Part shown: positions 882 to 5,541 of the stretch, piece by piece
Layout of the letters: the number at the start of each line of letters is the position of its first letter
Numbering within the stretch: position 1 is the first letter of the stretch
Virus record (IMG/VR): IMGVR_UViG_3300029619_000123
Source: a virus
Taxonomy: Duplodnaviria > Heunggongvirae > Uroviricota > Caudoviricetes
Length of the DNA stretch: 5,541 bases
Direction: 5' to 3' (one strand)
Notes under the pieces: model-generated
What the model saw: the letters and a program-made list of their open reading frames with translations, nothing else
The model's database searches: none
What the model was told of the DNA's origin: nothing
Position numbers and translations under genes: made by a program

Positions 882-1369
882 TAAGCCCACACGTAATTCC
901 CTGACAGATACCACTCATCACCCGATACAGCGCGCTTGCTGCTTTTCCGTAAGCCCCGCTCACGGCGCGCCAGAAAATTGTTTCGTTCTGACTGGGAGTG
1001 GCTTTCACGGAATGCCGCCATCCACACGGTTGCAGCACGACGGTATAAGCCCCTGGACTCCAGTTCTTCAGCCTGGCGGGTCAGGCACAAAATTACCCGG
1101 GGATCGTTAGTGCCGACATAGAAATTGCGCACAGGTCTGGTTTCACGAACTGGTTGTGGTTCCGGCTCCTGCGCTCTCTCAGTCAGGCGCGGGAAATGTC
1201 TGCGTGTATTTCCTTCACAACGGTGAGCCACACGCCCACTCTGACGTAACTTGCTTGCTGACTGCAGAACGCGCTGCCGTGAGTAACCTGCAAAAGCATC
1301 TGCAATGTCTCCGGAAGTACACCCCGGATGGGCTTCAATGAATTTCTGAACTTCATTCAAAAGACTCAT
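881..1369 (-). CDS. PerC-family transcriptional regulator-like protein with an N-terminal extension (162 aa)
   Basis: ATG at 1369 with AGGGGG SD about 6 nt upstream. C-terminal half contains AEELESRGLYRRAATVWMAAF, matching the PerC/Pch signature (LE..GLWRRAA..W, from memory). The N-terminal ~60 aa (MSLLNEVQKFIEAHPGCTSGDIADAFAGYSRQRVLQSASKLRQSGRV) looks like a separate small domain. Confidence 0.65.
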   Translation of the reverse strand: MSLLNEVQKFIEAHPGCTSGDIADAFAGYSRQRVLQSASKLRQSGRVAHRCEGNTRRHFPRLTERAQEPEPQPVRETRPVRNFYVGTNDPRVILCLTRQAEELESRGLYRRAATVWMAAFRESHSQSERNNFLARRERGLRKSSKRAVSGDEWYLSGNYVWA

Positions 1370-1371
1370 GA

Positions 1372-2190
1372 TTACCCCCTGAATCCTGCCGGGATCTGGC
1401 TGTAGTCCACGTTGTCGTAACTGGGTTTGAAGTACGGGTCCTCGCGTCTGGCTGCAGATACCGCAGGAACTTCCCAGGATTCTTCGAAATGACGATCCGG
1501 ACCAAAGAACGTGACAGCCTGTTTCACAAATTGTGTGCCGCTGTTACCCATCGCAGATACCCAGCCCGCGTAGCGTTTCACACCTTCCAGCATGGTTTCG
1601 GGTTTTACCCCCTCATTCAAACGGGCTTTCCAGGCTTTGAAGGCTGCAGATTTTGAATTGCCACCAGCACGTTTGGGGTATGCCAGCCATGCCTGCTCAA
1701 ACTCCGGAGAGTATTCCGGTCGGTTTGAACGAACTCGCACAGACTCATCAGCAGATGCACCAACAGCTATTGGTTCATTGACTGGTTCTTTGACTGGTTC
1801 AAAAGAGTGACTGGTTCTGGGTGAATCTCCTGCACCACCCCCTGGTGCAACTCCTGCACTACCTGGTGAATTTGCTGCACCAGATAGTGAATTATTTGCA
1901 CTACCCCCTAGTGAATCTCCTGCACCATCAAGATGAAGGAGATAGATATTACTTGAGTTACCTTTTTCACCTTTCCGGGTGACTTTTTTTACCAGCCCGG
2001 AATCACAAAGGGCCGCAATATGATTCATCACAGAACGTTTGCTAATCTCGCACTGGTCAGCAATATGCTGGTAGCTGGGCCAGCACTCACCCTGATCGCT
2101 GGCATTATCAGCCAGCTTGATCAGAACCAGTTTTCGCAATGGATTACCCACTCGAATTTTCATCGCTTTAACCATCAGCTCCATACTCAT
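1372..2190 (-). CDS. Phage replication initiation protein: N-terminal HTH domain, repetitive linker, DnaT-like C-terminal domain (272 aa)
   Basis: First ATG in frame is at 2190 with strong GGAGGT SD about 6 nt upstream; the track start at 2229 is a TTG. N-terminus MSMELMVKAMKIRVGNPLRKLVLIKLADNASDQGECWPSYQHIADQCEISKRSVMNHIAALCDSGLVKK is HTH-like. C-terminus ...DYSQIPAGFRG resembles the C-terminus of E. coli primosomal protein DnaT (...SQIPPGFRG, from memory). The Gly/Ser/Ala/Pro-rich linker is encoded by the iteron-like repeats. Confidence 0.85.
   Translation of the reverse strand: MSMELMVKAMKIRVGNPLRKLVLIKLADNASDQGECWPSYQHIADQCEISKRSVMNHIAALCDSGLVKKVTRKGEKGNSSNIYLLHLDGAGDSLGGSANNSLSGAANSPGSAGVAPGGGAGDSPRTSHSFEPVKEPVNEPIAVGASADESVRVRSNRPEYSPEFEQAWLAYPKRAGGNSKSAAFKAWKARLNEGVKPETMLEGVKRYAGWVSAMGNSGTQFVKQAVTFFGPDRHFEESWEVPAVSAARREDPYFKPSYDNVDYSQIPAGFRG
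1771..1816. repeat. Short direct repeats GACTGGTTC x3 (plus a partial TGGTTC) adjacent to the iteron block
   Basis: gactggttc at 1780-1788, 1792-1800 and 1808-1816; tggttc at 1771-1776. They encode the EPVKEPVNEP segment of the replication protein. Confidence 0.4.
1821..1927. repeat. Five direct ~17-bp iteron-like repeats (GTGAAT-CTCCTGCACCA family) inside the replication gene; candidate origin of replication
   Basis: Copies at 1821-1837 (gtgaatctcctgcacca), 1846-1862 (gtgcaactcctgcacta), 1866-1882 (gtgaatttgctgcacca), 1887-1903 (gtgaattatttgcacta), 1911-1927 (gtgaatctcctgcacca); first and last are identical. Spacing 20-25 bp, about two helical turns. A moderately AT-rich stretch follows at about 1930-1990. 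Confidence 0.6.
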
Positions 2191-2423: not shown

Positions 2424-3252
2424 GACGATGCCCTCCGCTGATATTCAGGAGACGGTGAATATGAAAATTAGCCTTATCCGCCAGACGAATACGTTCAGCC
2501 TGCAAGTTAAGAAGGGTTTCTACCAAAACCTGATGCGCCTGCGGATCCGAAAGAGTTACCTTGCGCAGAGCACGTAGTGCAGTTGTTACATAACTGAGTT
2601 TATGTAAGTCTTCATCATTCAGACGAGTGAGGGCTGGGACAGTAGCCATGATGGCAGCCTCCGATAACAGTGAATTACCTTCACCACCGGAAACGCCAAT
2701 TTCGCTGGTGGTGAACTGAACGGGGTTGGCGTAACCGGCGTTATCGGAAACCGGCGCACCTTTCGGTGCCCCCGTCCAGCCCACCATAATTTGGGTGTGC
2801 ACAGACACAGACGATAAAAAAGACGCTGGCGCGTCATATATCGCCGATAACATTTCCAGGACGCCAATCCCGTCACCCGCTTTATAAGGTGCCTGAACAG
2901 TGTAACGTCCCGGAATGGCAGAATCAATGTGCTGGTGGTCCTTCACACTCAACAAAATCACGCCTGAATTTCCACAAAGGACTAAAGCACTCATGCGGGT
3001 AGTCTTTGCGAAGATAGATAACGCGCTGTGTTTCTGGTTCCCAACGAATAACATGGACATAAAGCCCTCTTCCGTCACGAAACCAGCGGTTAAGTTCCCG
3101 CACAACTCGCCCCCCACAGTCAGGTAAAGTTCTCTGTGGTTACTTACAGCCAGGTGATTTGGTAATCTGCATTCATGCCGTAACAACAGGTGTTCAGCGA
3201 CACTGACCACCAGCTGTTGCGACAAACGGTTATTTGCCGTTAAACTGTTCAT
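2416..3252 (-). CDS. Hypothetical protein (278 aa), no family recognised; accessory gene in early operon
   Basis: Longest ORF in the region, same strand as neighbours. ATG at 3252 overlaps the upstream gene stop (ATGA); GGAG SD about 10 nt upstream. No Walker A, HNH, DPPY or other motif I can recognise by eye. Confidence 0.7.
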   Translation of the reverse strand: MNSLTANNRLSQQLVVSVAEHLLLRHECRLPNHLAVSNHRELYLTVGGELCGNLTAGFVTEEGFMSMLFVGNQKHSALSIFAKTTRMSALVLCGNSGVILLSVKDHQHIDSAIPGRYTVQAPYKAGDGIGVLEMLSAIYDAPASFLSSVSVHTQIMVGWTGAPKGAPVSDNAGYANPVQFTTSEIGVSGGEGNSLLSEAAIMATVPALTRLNDEDLHKLSYVTTALRALRKVTLSDPQAHQVLVETLLNLQAERIRLADKANFHIHRLLNISGGHRHA

Positions 3253-3812
3253 GCGTTAGTTTCTCCACAGACACAAAACGCCACGACGCCCGGAGCTGCA
3301 CACTCGCGGGCGTCACTCTTTTCTGGAGCGCAAAAGATTTTGTAGACCAGTGCTGCATGCTCTTGGAGCTTCGAAATTGACAGATACAACTCATCATTAA
3401 TTGCTGTCTGCTCGTGTGGCTCCACGACCCCATCTTCGATTGCCGAACGAATCTGCTTTGAGTAATTCCCGATCTGTTCGATGACTTCCAGCAGGCGCTG
3501 GTTTATATCGGCGTTCTCTACTTCCTCAATTTCAGGAAGCGATACGAACACCCCACCAGCAGACTGTGCGACAGCATCCGCAATGTAGTGAGTGTCAGCC
3601 GCGCGCTGTAAAACCATTGCCCATCCCAGCGGGAAAATCTGATCGCCATCGGCACGAAGGCGGTTAAATAATGCGTTCTCTGTTACATCCAGCCAGTCAG
3701 CTGCTTCAGCGTAACCACCCGGCAACGCTGCGATAGTTTTTCTGACAGCTTTCACGTACCACTCAGGCTGTTTTTCTACTTTCCAGTGATACTTACCCAC
3801 GGTTAGCCTCAT
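3249..3812 (-). CDS. Putative CII-like / YdaT-like early regulatory protein (187 aa); function assigned mainly by position after cro
   Basis: ORF begins at ATG 3812, 31 bp after the cro-like stop. Contains an HTH-like segment (GGYAEAADWLDVTENALFNRLR). Size and position match the CII(CP76)/YdaT-like proteins that follow cro-like genes in enterobacterial prophages (from memory, not verified). SD is weak. Confidence 0.5.
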   Translation of the reverse strand: MRLTVGKYHWKVEKQPEWYVKAVRKTIAALPGGYAEAADWLDVTENALFNRLRADGDQIFPLGWAMVLQRAADTHYIADAVAQSAGGVFVSLPEIEEVENADINQRLLEVIEQIGNYSKQIRSAIEDGVVEPHEQTAINDELYLSISKLQEHAALVYKIFCAPEKSDARECAAPGVVAFCVCGETNA

Positions 3813-3843: not shown

Positions 3844-4044
3844 TTAATCTTTCGGATAGATATCCGGTCTTAAGTCAGATTTCGTAATTGCACCTGACGT
3901 GCATTGCTCAAGTTTTTTCGCCAGCACAAAACTGGCTTTTTTATAACCATTGAAAACCAGCCGTAAGTAGCCAGGTGTTGAGCCAACTTTTCCGGCCAAC
4001 TCGCCCTGCTGTTCTTTGGTTAAAGAGTCCCAATACGCTTTCAT
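3844..4044 (-). CDS. Cro-like HTH transcriptional regulator (66 aa; YdaS/Cro family-like)
   Basis: ATG at 4044 with GGAGGT SD (rc of 4054-4059) upstream. MKAYWDSLTKEQQGELAGKVGSTPGYLRLVFNGYKKASFVLAKKLEQCTSGAITKSDLRPDIYPKD contains a classic HTH (QGELAGKVGSTPGYLRLVFNG). Divergent from the repressor gene. The track start at 4149 would overlap the repressor gene and lacks an SD. Confidence 0.8.
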   Translation of the reverse strand: MKAYWDSLTKEQQGELAGKVGSTPGYLRLVFNGYKKASFVLAKKLEQCTSGAITKSDLRPDIYPKD

Positions 4045-4134
4045 ACAATATGTACCTCCAGTATACATATTACATGATTGAAATGAACCTTCAAGGTACT
4101 TGTACCTTATCGGTACAAAGGTTTTAATTTCGTT
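4045..4134. promoter_or_regulatory. Divergent cro/cI intergenic control region with operator-like palindromes and candidate PR / PRM promoters
   Basis: 16-bp palindrome AAGGTACttGTACCTT at 4093-4108 with perfect 7-bp arms. Second inverted repeat ATATGTA-n9-TACATAT at 4048-4070. Further GGTAC half-site at 4112-4116. Candidate PR on minus strand: -35 TTGAAG (rc of 4089-4094), 16-bp spacer, -10 TAATAT (rc of 4067-4072). Candidate PRM -10 TAATTT at 4126-4131, just upstream of the cI ATG with no SD, suggesting a leaderless cI mRNA as in lambda. Confidence 0.6.
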
Positions 4135-4809
4135 ATGAAAACAATCCATGACATCCGGCGGTCTAACGCCAGAAAACTGAGAGATGGTGTTGGCGGAAAT
4201 TCATCCTTTGCCACCATGATTGATCGCGAGCCAACCCAAACCAGCAGGTTTATGGGGGATGGCGCTACTAAAAATATCGGTGACAGCATGGCACGGCACA
4301 TCGAAAAATGTTTCGACCTGCCTGTCGGATGGCTTGATCAAGAACACCAGACAACGAACATCACAAAAAAACCTGATGTTTCAATCACTAACAAACAAAT
4401 AACGTTAGTCCCTGTCATATCATGGGTACAGGCCGGAGCATGGAAAGAAGTTGGCTATTCTGAGGTTGATTTGAGCACAGCAGAAACGTATCCCTGCCCT
4501 GTACCCTGTGGCGAAATGACTTATATCTTGCGGGTGATTGGTGATTCAATGATTGATGAGTACCGCCCTGGAGACATGATTTTTGTTGATCCCGAAGTCC
4601 CTGCCTGCCACGGTGACGACGTTATTGCATTGATGCACGATACAGGCGAAACCACCTTCAAGCGATTGATAGAAGATGGAACACAGCGTTATCTCAAAGC
4701 ATTAAACCCAAACTGGCCTGAGCCTTACATTAAGATTAACGGTAATTGCTCTATAATTGGTACAGTGATTTTCTCGGGAAAACCAAGAAGATACACAATA
4801 AAGGCCTAA
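4135..4809 (+). CDS. CI-like prophage repressor with C-terminal LexA/S24 peptidase autocleavage domain (224 aa)
   Basis: S24 hallmarks all present: Ala-Gly cleavage site (VQAGAW), catalytic Ser motif (VIGDSMID), catalytic Lys (TTFKRL). N-terminal region ends with a ...LPVGWLD segment typical of repressor DNA-binding domains. Divergent from cro-like gene. Confidence 0.9.
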   Translation: MKTIHDIRRSNARKLRDGVGGNSSFATMIDREPTQTSRFMGDGATKNIGDSMARHIEKCFDLPVGWLDQEHQTTNITKKPDVSITNKQITLVPVISWVQAGAWKEVGYSEVDLSTAETYPCPVPCGEMTYILRVIGDSMIDEYRPGDMIFVDPEVPACHGDDVIALMHDTGETTFKRLIEDGTQRYLKALNPNWPEPYIKINGNCSIIGTVIFSGKPRRYTIKA

Positions 4810-4821
4810 TCAATATTTATG

Positions 4822-4846
4822 AACCTGCTTCGGCAGGTTTTTTTAT
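4822..4846 (+). terminator. Rho-independent terminator downstream of the repressor gene
   Basis: AACCTGC-TTCG-GCAGGTT perfect 7-bp stem with TTCG tetraloop, followed by TTTTTTT, starting 13 bp after the cI stop codon. Confidence 0.8.
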
Positions 4847-4848
4847 AC

Positions 4849-4876
4849 TTGACAATGTACCTATGAGATACATAAT
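4849..4876 (+). promoter_or_regulatory. Candidate PL-like sigma70 promoter with operator half-site in the spacer
   Basis: -35 TTGACA at 4849-4854, 16-bp spacer, -10 CATAAT at 4871-4876. The spacer contains TGTACCT (4856-4862), the same heptamer found twice in the cro/cI intergenic region (4051-4057, 4102-4108). Confidence 0.5.
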
Positions 4877-5294
4877 GTATCCAAAAGAAACATGAGGCAG
4901 GCAAGATTCAAACAAAATTTGGTTGTAACACGGCGTATGGCACATGCGTCGTTAGCGGTCTGGGGACGTTAAAGGGGACAATCCACTCCTTGCTAGGGCA
5001 AACAAACCAGGTAGCCGGAATGTGCAAGTCAATGATGATGCTGATAAGACGCCTAACCAGCGTGGCGATCCGGTTTGACGCCTGGGAAGAGACCAGGGTG
5101 CAACGATGAGGGCATTTATGGAGCCGCGACAAAGTGTGGTGCCGTAACTGGCTAAGTGCTCTCAGCGTTGTGGTCATCCGCGAAATGGCGCGGCGGTAAG
5201 TATGGCTGGGTTACTCTTTCCCCGTTGAGGACACCGGATTGTCAGGTTGACCATACGCCTGAGTGACAACCCCACCACAACAGCCACTGCTTTG

Positions 5295-5340
5295 GCGGTA
5301 CCAGTTTGTACACTTGCTTCCGGCTGGTACCGCTCTTTTT
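5295..5340 (+). terminator. Terminator-like hairpin with GGTACC-containing arms followed by a T-tract; overlaps a boxA-like CGCTCTTTTTA
   Basis: GCGGTACCAG (5295-5304) and CTGGTACCGC (5324-5333) form a perfect 10-bp inverted repeat around a 19-nt loop, followed by TCTTTTT (5334-5340). The loop is long for a canonical intrinsic terminator. The arms carry the GGTACC operator-like motif. Confidence 0.4.
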
Positions 5341-5341
5341 A

Positions 5342-5428
5342 CAAAACAGAGAAGAGCATCACCGGACGACGGGCTCATAACCCAATCCATCCGGGCGGCT
5401 GCCACCGCAGGTGTTCTTCTCTGTTTTG
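5342..5428. other. Long imperfect hairpin (~87 nt) in the 5' leader of the right-end gene
   Basis: caaaacagagaag (5342-5354) is the exact reverse complement of cttctctgttttg (5416-5428), 13 bp. This is extended by cacc (5360-5363) pairing ggtg (5410-5413). The enclosed ~46-nt loop is GC-rich. Confidence 0.35.
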
Positions 5429-5477
5429 TGGAGAAACCAACCGACCTTGCAGGGTCGATATGATGAGGAGCAGCAAA

Positions 5478-5541
5478 ATGGCTAGCGAACGCAGTACTGA
5501 TGTGCAGGCATTTATCGGGGAGCTGGACGGCGGCGTATTTG
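5478..5541 (+). CDS. Hypothetical protein, N-terminal 21 aa only (MASERSTDVQAFIGELDGGVF...); continues past window end
   Basis: ATG at 5478 preceded by GAGGAG SD (5465-5470) at 7-nt spacing; open to the window end. In-frame ATGs at 5460 and 5463 are alternatives with weaker SD. Too short to assign a family. Confidence 0.5.
   Translation, partial: MASERSTDVQAFIGELDGGVF

Follow-up and report, generated by a model that had tools for sequence, protein, structure and literature searches.

A mosaic leader of mobile RNA modules in a probable prophage early-left operon, with a divergent DicF-like locus and an apparently new pseudoknotted RNA

DicF is among the oldest known bacterial small RNAs and a paradigm of prophage control over host division and metabolism; it pairs with the ftsZ, xylR and pykA mRNAs. 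The tRNA cluster of phage T4 also encodes two stable RNAs, species 1 and 2 (rnaC and rnaD), that have no known function. In put-type systems each early operon contains a single site (putL, putR), of about 65 nt with two stem-loops. In the Qin prophage, a 190-nt DicF species has a 5' end that depends on RNase III (PMC10448788), while the 53-nt DicF is produced by RNase E, with a 3' end made by termination or by RNase III (PMC10448788, PMC5069750). GOLLD and ROOL are large ornate RNAs of Firmicute prophages (PMC12286853).

The window (the whole 5,541-nt stretch of phage DNA analysed here) contains, after a promoter of PL type, about 457 nt that keep no conserved reading frame and end in a strong hairpin with a U-tail. 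The entire interval between ymfK and yfdP is left unannotated by NCBI's PGAP in an identical E. coli chromosome. Most probably it comprises the promoter of a PL-type early-left operon, in an SOS-inducible lambdoid prophage of E. coli, together with the operon's non-coding leader, which is organised like the dicF region of the Qin prophage and would be a polycistronic RNA precursor. Four RNA modules, each separately mobile, make up this leader as a mosaic, and it is neither a pseudogene nor a single non-coding RNA: BLASTN matches to it form a mosaic pattern, and the module boundaries are sharp. From the repressor gene to the first gene of the operon, the features are:

4135-4809, cI-like repressor gene (ymfK-type), carrying a Peptidase_S24 domain
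4821-4840, + strand, intrinsic terminator of the cI-like gene (terminator scan: 8-bp stem and T-run)
4849-4876, + strand, predicted PL-type sigma70 promoter: -35 TTGACA at 4849-4854, 16-nt spacer, -10 CATAAT at 4871-4876
4855-4874, no strand assigned, operator-like 20-nt motif ATGTACCT-N6-TACATA, inside the PL promoter spacer
4884-4923, + strand, short A-rich leader without conserved structure (sequence inspection)
4924-5103, + strand, 5' domain, a 180-nt conserved pseudoknotted RNA (covariance model R1)
5101-5170, + strand, long "hairpin unit" CAACG.UGAGGGCAUU ... AAGUGCUCUCAGCGUUG, with a covarying basal stem and a fold z of -3.7
5167-5281, + strand, module B, a cloverleaf-like four-way junction with closing helix 5167-5174 / 5274-5281
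5291-5340, + strand, DicF-family sRNA variant by homology, with a UUUGGCGG core, doubling as the leader's intrinsic terminator
5336-5434, + strand, near-perfect hairpin of about 25 bp, beyond the segment covered by an earlier note on this DNA; its 5' arm includes the sRNA U-tail
5442-5480, + strand, small hairpin (5442-5457), GAGGAG ribosome-binding site and yfdP start codon at 5478-5480 (fold; PGAP)

The earlier note had placed a near-consensus sigma70 promoter (TTGACA-16-CATAAT) right after the cI terminator, and the site does match consensus at 11 of 12 positions and is the top-scoring one between 3800 and 5541; the promoter scan returned three promoter-like sites against 2.2 expected, so that the PL match by itself is statistically unremarkable. 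The same note saw an operator-like TGTACCT there and suggested repressor-type control, which is supported: the string is part of the 20-nt motif, and this motif is repeated in the cI/cro intergenic region, once exactly (4050-4069) and once with two mismatches (4100-4119), where 0.02 sites are expected by chance. Similarity to phages of other immunity types starts only at about 4902, as expected if promoter and operator are immunity-specific. In the record of phage Ayreon, the depositors annotated a terminator at the equivalent of the cI terminator and a promoter at the equivalent of PL. Transcription would start at about 4883-4884, as predicted from the promoter position, and the A-rich leader that follows differs among three genomic contexts of the 5' domain. 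Promoter, transcription start, termination and processing at this locus are all predictions made from the sequence.

The 3' half of the leader is homologous to the Qin dicF locus, which makes the terminator hairpin a DicF-family sRNA. Judged by its sequence, 5291-5340 is a divergent member of that family, complete with terminator and missed by Rfam. It aligns with DicF nucleotides 13-53 and stands directly after module B, as DicF does in Qin. Its parts are:

5294-5306 / 5322-5334, stem of 13 bp, enclosing a C/U-rich loop of 15 nt at 5307-5321, UGUACACUUGCUUCC
5335-5340, U-tail CUUUUU

This hairpin (-22 kcal/mol, z = -3.2 to -3.4) has the large pyrimidine-rich loop and U-tail of an Hfq-type 3' end; the terminator scan misses it because the loop is 15 nt long. 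The architecture is common to five other variants, whose stems covary, and to DicF itself, and the position (in a lambdoid early-left operon, after a conserved precursor segment) is that of DicF in the same register. The conserved blocks of DicF are a 5' single-stranded UUUCUGGUGACG, then UUUGGCGGUAUCAG. The second is present here with one change (UUUGGCGGUACCAG, 5291-5304); the first (nt 1-12) is deleted along with the A/U-rich RNase E site, 19 nt in total, so that a short mature sRNA may not form. The Rfam DicF model (RF00039, gathering score 48 bits) gives no match at E<=1 over the whole window, nor at E<=10 over 4880-5480. The DicF of Tritos, used as a positive control, scores 72.5 bits, and an intermediate variant (locus L161) gives a sub-threshold match of 22 bits (E 0.023). 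In a crude duplex-energy test against the ftsZ leader, the window sRNA does no better than shuffled sequences, and DicF itself marginally better.

In Tritos, PPompW and K-12 Qin, the stretch that directly precedes dicF shows 87-88% identity to module B. There, as here, module B and the sRNA come in this order downstream of the cI-like repressor and its promoter, a layout also seen in Salmonella phage F1055 and phage pPE4. RNAalifold gives module B 31 pairs, seven of them compensatory, and within the closing helix there are three arms:

5178-5193, arm 1, CCGCG-AAAUGG-CGCGG
arm 2, variable
5236-5272, arm 3, with the conserved loop GGUUGACCAUACGCC

In phiV10-like phages a tRNA-Arg(UCU) starts at the equivalent of G5170, which puts module B in the tRNA slot of its relatives, and elements with canonical D- and T-arm motifs are found in this slot in relatives. 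Module B thus has the topology of a cloverleaf and the position of a tRNA, but tRNA finders do not recognise it: ARAGORN reports no tRNA or tmRNA in the window, the Rfam tRNA model has no match in 4880-5480 at E<=10, and the D- and T-arm elements of the relatives are negative by both methods. Neither program supports module B or these relatives as bona fide tRNAs.

The base of the hairpin unit is homologous to a hairpin of K-12 Qin (L134:2673-2758). Counting about 190 nt back from the 3' end of DicF leads into the 3' arm of that hairpin, on which the end of the 190-nt precursor is placed by length alone. By analogy, the unit is predicted to be an RNase III processing site. The tRNA-Arg of phiV10-like phages starts with no spacer (0 nt) after the unit, and such abutting tRNA genes (tRNA-Ile beside the 5' domain in phage P1, tRNA-Arg beside the hairpin unit in phiV10-like phages) argue for modules that are excised like stable RNAs. 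Beyond the sRNA, the hairpin at 5336-5434 (-51 kcal/mol, z = -6.5) is kept with compensatory changes in Citrobacter and in Salmonella phage F1055. Its modelled fold makes it a second predicted double-stranded (RNase III) site, one that would part the sRNA from the yfdP message when transcripts read through. According to PGAP, yfdP, the first gene behind the leader, starts at 5478-5480 in the identical chromosome, and its product belongs to no Pfam family.

The 5' domain is not part of the Qin plan. Its helices, in the R1 fold, are:

4931-4939 / 4943-4951, P1 hairpin
4956-4962 / 5008-5017, P2
5028-5030 / 5064-5066, P3
5049-5052 / 5060-5063, P3b
5055-5058 with 5072-5075, pseudoknot
5081-5085 / 5093-5097, P4, with the invariant loop GAAGAGA

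Model R1 scores 183.9 bits at 4924-5103, the sole copy in the window. Across 31 distinct homologs, 96.5% of the cells of the R1 fold are paired, against 30-47% when the partners are slid; compensatory changes occur in 14 of the 32 pairs, and the observed values are reached in 0 of 500 shuffles, although compensatory "cells" are not independent events because the homologs are related by descent and recombination. The pseudoknot itself covaries (CACC/GGUG against AACC/GGUU), and G-U pairs identify the + strand as the RNA strand. The invariant single strands are GGAAUGUGCAAG and GGCGAU.CGGU.UGAC. Because the first collection scan required an exact 18-mer of the domain, it favours invariance of that block, but the block came back unchanged in two later scans keyed on a different one. 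Single-sequence folding of module A (z = -1.1) is not informative alone, and comparative analysis is needed to see the structure.

Rfam 15 (4227 covariance models), run on 4880-5480 at E<=10, has nothing on the + strand of the 5' domain, the lone overlap with 4924-5103 being a 14.6-bit chance match on the opposite strand, and a scan of the whole window at E<=1 has no match in the interval. The literature searched (on phage P1 and its ban operon, GOLLD and ROOL prophage RNAs, catalogues of structured phage RNAs, "dicF-like" and P1 transcriptomes) does not describe the domain. Of 5,426 complete E. coli genomes, 1,834 give BLASTN matches to module A as a whole (4917-5173), and such matches also occur on P1-type plasmids and in Stx2c phages; yet it carries no annotation anywhere. 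The 5' domain occurs in Escherichia, Citrobacter, Kluyvera, Pseudescherichia and Ca. Erwinia lineages, with unrelated flanks. In phage P1 (175.6 bits with model R1) it lies directly 3' of tRNA-Ile, 1-3 nt from the tRNA end, and in phiV10-like phages it lies upstream of a tRNA-Arg that abuts the intervening hairpin unit. K-12 Qin, searched with nhmmer and model R1, does not carry it; only the hairpin unit and module B are found there.

While the DicF locus was already known, the 5' domain looks like a new RNA class. There is a nearly even case for an undescribed class of phage RNA with a function of its own, passed as a cassette among lambdoid, P1-like and phiV10-like phages and processed by the tRNA/rRNA machinery. 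Candidate roles would include a protein- or ligand-binding RNA, a decoy and a ribozyme, and the same reading would allow the cloverleaf to mimic a tRNA, for example to act as a decoy against defence nucleases that attack tRNAs. Tentatively, and at less than even odds, the preferred role of the domain is that of a stable trans-acting RNA, released early in the lytic cycle and binding a host or phage factor. Because the domain stands behind repressor-controlled early promoters, any function would act at lytic onset.

A less probable account takes the 5' domain and hairpin as a cis-acting leader, either a processive antiterminator, as are HK022 put and Bacillus EAR, or a riboswitch-like sensor. 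The cis effect, for which we likewise see a minor chance, would be to carry polymerase through the DicF-like terminator into yfdPQR, in a phage with no N gene near PL. The 5' domain is indeed a promoter-proximal module (in L141-type loci it starts about 10 nt past a promoter-like sequence), a strong intrinsic terminator separates it from the first gene, no N-like gene follows PL (YfdP being without a Pfam family), the phage P1 copy is located in the ban leader, and the size, pseudoknot and invariant junction nucleotides are aptamer-like. However, put-type systems place a site in each early operon, and here there is a single copy in the window despite coverage of about 4 kb of the PR operon. 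In phiV10-like phages the hairpin and then a tRNA come directly after the domain, with no adjacent terminator or ribosome-binding site, and the same sRNA/terminator layout exists in Qin, Tritos, F1055 and pPE4 without the domain. No alternative pairing with the terminator, as in an expression platform, was found. The sequence after the domain depends on context: in phiV10 it is a tRNA, in P1 the ban leader and in the window a hairpin plus tRNA-like element, and no common platform was seen.

It is rather improbable that the leader is the relic of a phage tRNA cluster, in which degenerate tRNAs and spacers would serve as a scaffold for sRNA processing and the 5' domain would be functionless. Such a history would fit module B in the place of the real tRNA of phiV10-like phages, the D-arm and T-arm motifs both in the module B slot of relatives and within hairpin units, and the 5' domain adjoining tRNA-Ile in P1. 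Against it, the domain has no similarity to tRNA by ARAGORN or Rfam, and, in lineages with unrelated flanks, it retains both invariant blocks of 15-25 nt and compensatory pairs, which indicates purifying selection on its own fold.

The remaining alternatives are coding ones. Every + strand frame with an ATG start is shorter than 30 codons; TTG and GTG starts extend the longest to 39 and 36 aa, and the GTG frame at 5263-5463 (+ strand, 66 aa) spans the 3' end of the interval. No frame is kept across homologs on either strand, homologs differ by indels of -1, +4 and +5 nt (not multiples of three), and their substitutions are compensatory for RNA helices. Candidate ORFs have zero matches in Pfam, and in PHROGs they match only families of unknown function, on antisense or overlapping frames; PHROG families are built from deposited ORF calls and so inherit recurrent miscalls. 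GC content is 52-56% within 4900-5400, against 36-47% in the flanks. The earlier note's picture of some 460 relatively GC-rich nt with no convincing ORF (ATG frames on the + strand under 30 codons) and a terminator-like hairpin at the 3' end (13-bp stem and CUUUUU) is therefore accurate, and its option of an untranslated leader or sRNA was essentially correct, an RNA product being supported. Its candidate ncRNA stands as regards an RNA product, but as a mosaic of four modules and not as one element.

Two of its options are not supported. Tiny peptides find no frame conserved across homologs on either strand: translated + strand micro-ORFs, such as ATG 4892 (26 aa) or the frame at 4990-5109 (39 aa), are very improbable, for though such frames do exist, ATG 4892 has no upstream Shine-Dalgarno sequence, and the frames fall within conserved helices and are not conserved in the P1, phiV10 and Kluyvera copies. 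A decayed N-like, rex-like or other protein gene, or a gene on the minus strand, is scarcely credible, although open minus-strand frames of 85-93 codons occur in 6 of 11 homologs and depositors call ORFs here (64 aa at 5211-5405 (-), which matches phrog_3651 at E 5e-38; 89 aa at 4908-5177 (-); F1055_0036). The open frame of different homologs reads the invariant core differently (LHIPATW, LAHSGYL, CTFRLPG), and indels of the sizes given above, the lack of Pfam matches, the absence of a PGAP gene call, and G-U pairs and compensatory changes that fit a + strand RNA all speak against a protein. Miscalls on this RNA would appear to account for several ORFs in deposited phage records and for at least three PHROG families.

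[quoted passage not shown] Once the LexA-like repressor is off the operator, RNA polymerase would start near 4883. Most transcripts, with a primary length of about 457 nt, would terminate at 5340 behind the hairpin and U-tail, and some would reach yfdPQR. The hairpin unit (5101-5170) would be cleaved by RNase III, as would the 25-bp hairpin (5336-5434) of those transcripts that read through. Cleavage would yield a structured RNA of about 200 nt from the 5' side, containing the pseudoknotted domain, and one of about 170-190 nt from the 3' side, containing the cloverleaf and the DicF-like hairpin. The hairpin and U-tail at the end of the latter would behave as an Hfq-type sRNA, whose variant C/U-rich loop and 5' tail would pair with host mRNAs; both Hfq binding and host targets are expected by analogy with DicF.

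Canonical DicF is apparently one member of a larger modular family whose members differ in their loop (seed) sequences, and the current Rfam model does not detect variants of this kind, whose host targets may differ. Conserved structured modules make up the "long untranslated region" of the dicF locus, among them a cloverleaf that replaces a tRNA and a hairpin unit that recurs as a separator. The covariation support for the 5' domain is comparable to that of accepted RNA families, and about a third of complete E. coli genomes match its module.

Among known systems, lambda nutL/N and HK022 put resemble this locus in that an RNA element close to PL precedes a terminator. The GAAGAGA loop of P4 is similar to GAAGA in the boxB loop of lambda nutL, and CGCUCUUUUUACAA (5331-5344) resembles boxA, but the order is the reverse of that in lambda, the boxA-like string forming the terminator tail, 3' of the boxB-like hairpin, and the first gene after PL is yfdP and not N. 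There is also one copy per prophage region here, unlike nut and put, and a domain of 180 nt with a pseudoknot is far larger than the put site of about 65 nt (these two were compared by description only). To our knowledge, neither P1 nor the phiV10-like phages, which carry the 5' domain, use N or put. With T4 species 1 and 2, GOLLD and ROOL the 5' domain has in common that it is a conserved structured phage RNA beside tRNA genes, apparently co-transcribed and co-processed with them. It has no similarity to them in sequence or by model (Rfam negative), is far smaller than GOLLD and ROOL, is enterobacterial, and is fused here to an sRNA locus.

The C1-controlled ban operon of phage P1 is closer, being a repressor-controlled early operon with the same modules. 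Its annotated "dicF-like region" is the homolog of module B and the terminator hairpin, while its 5' domain is left unannotated in the P1 record. There the module order is changed, with tRNAs (trnA, trnT, trnI) and tci genes in between; the standard hairpin unit is missing from the P1 copy, which runs on into ban. The Qin dicBF region differs from the window in that ydfABC lie upstream in Qin, whereas here the RNA opens the operon; in lacking the extra 180-nt pseudoknotted domain; in an sRNA that keeps DicF nt 1-12 and the RNase E site, where the window sRNA lacks both and has a longer stem and another loop; and in having dicB-ydfD downstream in place of yfdPQR. Both loci nevertheless lie in an early-left operon, downstream of a cI-like repressor and an operator-controlled promoter; both have, in the same order, a long hairpin, a structured segment of about 110 nt (87-88% identity) and an sRNA with an intrinsic terminator; and they have in common the core UUUGGCGGUAYCAGUUU and an RNase III-type structure downstream.

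The window comes from a lambdoid E. coli prophage and comprises its immunity and early region; the rightward early genes lie on the minus strand and run leftward. The genes that matter here are:

4135-4809, plus strand: LexA-like repressor gene, Peptidase_S24 (gene annotation and domain)
3850-4044, minus strand: cro-type HTH gene
5478: start of yfdP

Identical or near-identical DNA occurs in E. coli Ec1119-like chromosomes, in phages 2H10, cdtI and Ayreon, and in several Stx2c phages; NCBI pipeline annotation places zero features between the repressor gene and yfdP. The non-coding unit that an earlier note proposed for this interval is real. The 3' half of the unit is a DicF locus, a known system, in a form not seen before; the 5' half is a structured RNA that is well supported and has apparently not been described. 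Plus-strand frames are short, as that note had said, GC climbs to 52-56%, and at the terminator-like 3' end a 13-bp hairpin precedes a U-tail (-22 kcal/mol, z about -3.3).

The proposed promoter (TTGACA-16-CATAAT, 4849-4876) matches the consensus at 11 of 12 positions and is the top promoter-like site of the region, but such sites are no more frequent in the scanned region than chance predicts, which makes the match by itself weak evidence. The operator-like motif also stands: the promoter spacer carries a 20-nt motif, ATGTACCT-N6-TACATA, which recurs exactly at 4050-4069 and with two mismatches at 4100-4119, both between the repressor and cro genes (0.02 expected by chance). Judged by sequence, this distribution fits the pattern expected for operators common to PL and PR/PRM. 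Similarity to phages with other immunity types starts only at about 4902, so the promoter and operator belong to the immunity module and the downstream part is a separate module.

Elsewhere in the window, two Rfam matches, both above threshold, adjoin each other within the rightward early operon:

2704-2791, minus strand: C4 antisense RNA (82.8 bits)
2816-2892, minus strand: isrK Hfq-binding RNA (55.4 bits)

The pair is a predicted antirepressor control module of P1/P7 immI or Gifsy type, in a lambdoid prophage setting. Iteron-like direct repeats of about 21-24 nt (GTGAAT.T.CTGCAC...) and a 12-nt tandem pair (1771-1925) lie inside a minus-strand gene that relatives annotate as an HTH or replication protein, plausibly a phage replication origin inside its own initiator gene.

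When the stretch is compared by BLASTN with phages, plasmids and E. coli genomes, it falls into blocks, each with an independent distribution:

4917-5173: block A, in three contexts (lambdoid prophages, P1-type, phiV10/TL-2011b-type)
5167-5289: block B, 87-88% identical to DNA directly upstream of dicF in Tritos, PPompW and K-12 Qin
5293-5480: block C, upstream of yfdP-like genes in SfV, SfII, ST64B and others

Block A is positioned in lambdoid prophages as in the window. It starts 1-3 nt past tRNA-Ile(CAU), upstream of ban, in P1, P7, D6 and P1-like plasmids, and its last base exactly abuts the start of tRNA-Arg(UCU) in phiV10/TL-2011b-type phages. By BLASTN it is found in 1,834 of 5,426 complete E. 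coli genomes, and it is annotated in none.

Three independent sequence patterns retrieved homologs of the 5' domain of block A (4924-5103) from Escherichia, Citrobacter, Kluyvera, Pseudescherichia, Ca. Erwinia dacicola and many viral contigs. Alignment and RNAalifold give a multi-helix fold; a pseudoknot between the loop of hairpin P3b, (C/A)ACC, and a downstream GGU(G/U) was added by inspection. Across 17 diverse sequences, 96.5% of cells are paired (34-45% with partners slid), double changes occur at 10 pairs (46 cells), and no shuffle matches the observed covariation. The covariance model of the domain, R1, finds exactly one copy per locus (88-196 bits) and none in Qin, Tritos, PPompW, F1055 or pPE4. 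Among 31 distinct R1 matches, 14 of 32 pairs are compensatory, a level reached by 0 of 500 shuffles. G-U pairs are frequent, so the RNA strand is plus. The long single-stranded blocks GGAAUGUGCAAG and GGCGAU.CGGU.UGAC are invariant, as is a GAAGAGA loop; one invariant block was a requirement of the first homolog scan, and it is also unchanged in sequences fetched via a different block (the converse is true too). The domain has no family match in Rfam, and no mention of it was found in full-text literature searches or in the P1 transcriptome papers searched.

Our tentative reading of the 5' domain is a trans-acting stable RNA. Slightly less probable is an element acting in cis on read-through, stability or sensing, and its antiterminator or riboswitch form, taken by itself, is unlikely. 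The single copy, the existence of otherwise equivalent loci without the domain, and the tRNAs next to it weigh somewhat against a role as cis regulator. The rest of the probability falls to something else again, and a relic is improbable. The decayed gene suggested earlier is not borne out, with no Pfam matches for the candidate frames of the interval and with indels between homologs that are not multiples of three in length. Several homologs have minus-strand open frames of 85-93 codons; a minus-strand gene is rejected, as the invariant core is read in different frames in different homologs. Some deposited "hypothetical protein" ORFs lie wholly on the non-coding RNA region (positions in each locus):

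991-1563, minus strand: Salmonella phage F1055
3179-3298, plus strand: Ayreon
3400-3594, minus strand: Ayreon

The families phrog_3651, phrog_33599 and phrog_8854 are likewise built from ORFs wholly on this region. The best explanation for the PHROG matches, and for the deposited ORFs of Ayreon, F1055 and others, is that gene callers mistook GC-rich structured RNA for coding sequence; these ORFs and the three families are probably systematic miscalls.

A long hairpin, the hairpin unit (5101-5170), makes up the 3' part of block A; its base, (A/U)AACG.GAGAGCAUU...AGUGCUCUC..CGUUG, is conserved and covarying while its tip varies freely. K-12 Qin carries an equivalent directly upstream of block B; counting back 190 nt from the DicF 3' end (placement by length) leads into the 3' arm of that Qin unit. 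In Qin, the 190-nt DicF species has a 5' end that depends on RNase III (PMC10448788). Similar units are repeated inside single loci of relatives, weakly in P1, and behave like separators between RNA modules. The weak P1 copies (L004, 1490-2080) lie beneath the minus-strand genes plp and upl. The hairpin-unit base (5101-5105/5166-5170) and the closing helix of module B (5167-5174/5274-5281) both claim G5167-G5170, so they cannot both be complete; this competition could be a matter of folding order, a processing switch, or nothing.

The consensus fold of module B (5167-5281) is a four-way junction in which three arms join a closing helix (GUUGUGGU/ACCACAAC in the window, GUUGUGGC/GCUGCAAC in K-12), and 7 of its 31 pairs are compensatory. 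The GUGG that opens module B equals the first four bases of the genuine tRNA-Arg in phiV10-like phages, and in other relatives its slot is taken by elements whose D-arm and T-arm sequences are textbook examples. No tRNA detector used accepts module B or these slot elements, so the term tRNA-like, as applied to module B, refers solely to its position and topology. Perfect T-arm motifs (GGUUCGAUUCC or GGUUCGAAUCC in 4-5-bp stems) occur within rejected elements, both at hairpin-unit apices (L095, L135:1115-1135, L122, L127) and in the slot past the hairpin unit (L043, L125, and L161 with a canonical D-arm too). Such motifs suggest an origin of the RNA arrays in tRNA clusters, or mimicry of such clusters.

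The terminal hairpin is recognizable as a DicF-family sRNA. Variants from Citrobacter, pPE4, L161, L141 and F1055 have one common plan: a short 5' tail ending in UUGGCGG, a covarying stem extension (UACCAG/CUGGUA, GUAUC/GAUAC, UGG/CCA, UCG/CGA), a C/U-rich loop whose sequence varies from variant to variant, and a 3' U-tail. Rfam DicF does not detect the window copy; the L161 variant ties the series to it (22 bits, E 0.023). In a simple comparison of duplex energies with the ftsZ leader, the window variant scored no better than shuffled sequences, and DicF itself did so only marginally. The pPE4 locus (1300-1480) has a tandem duplication of about 100 nt, giving two consecutive DicF-like copies; its neighbors DicA, YdaT, Kil and exonuclease VIII look like those of an E. 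coli-type lambdoid phage, odd for a recorded Actinobacillus phage. STnc100 has a full Rfam match at L141 4176-4377 and sub-threshold ones of about 33 bits (gathering score 47) past DicF in Tritos (1696-1836) and within the P1 ban operon (2071-2190), and an STnc100-like element may be a further RNA module common to these early operons.

Past the sRNA lies a 25-bp near-perfect hairpin (5336-5434, z = -6.5), conserved with compensatory changes, whose 5' arm starts with the sRNA U-tail. A small hairpin (5442-5457) follows directly before the yfdP ribosome-binding site GAGGAG and the yfdP start. The boxA-like string CGCUCUUUUUACAA at 5331-5344 is taken to be coincidental.

By analogy, an early transcript under repressor control would be cut into stable RNAs, its 3' end would be a trans-acting Hfq-type sRNA, and read-through past the sRNA terminator would supply yfdPQR. 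We infer these processing steps for the window locus from Qin. In dicBF read-through transcripts, 3' processing is described as RNase III-dependent (PMC5069750); the hairpin at 5336-5434 is reminiscent of it and may act similarly. In P1, the annotated "dicF-like region" (L004 782-883) is a module B homolog with a different terminator hairpin, not DicF proper; the first 12 nt of canonical DicF (UUUCUGGUGA.G) are present in the P1 ban leader, directly past the 5' domain (L004 about 3195-3215). The window sRNA aligns to DicF nt 13-53, with UUUGGCGGUAYCAGUUU common to both, and differs from DicF in lacking nt 1-12 and the RNase E site (a 19-nt deletion).
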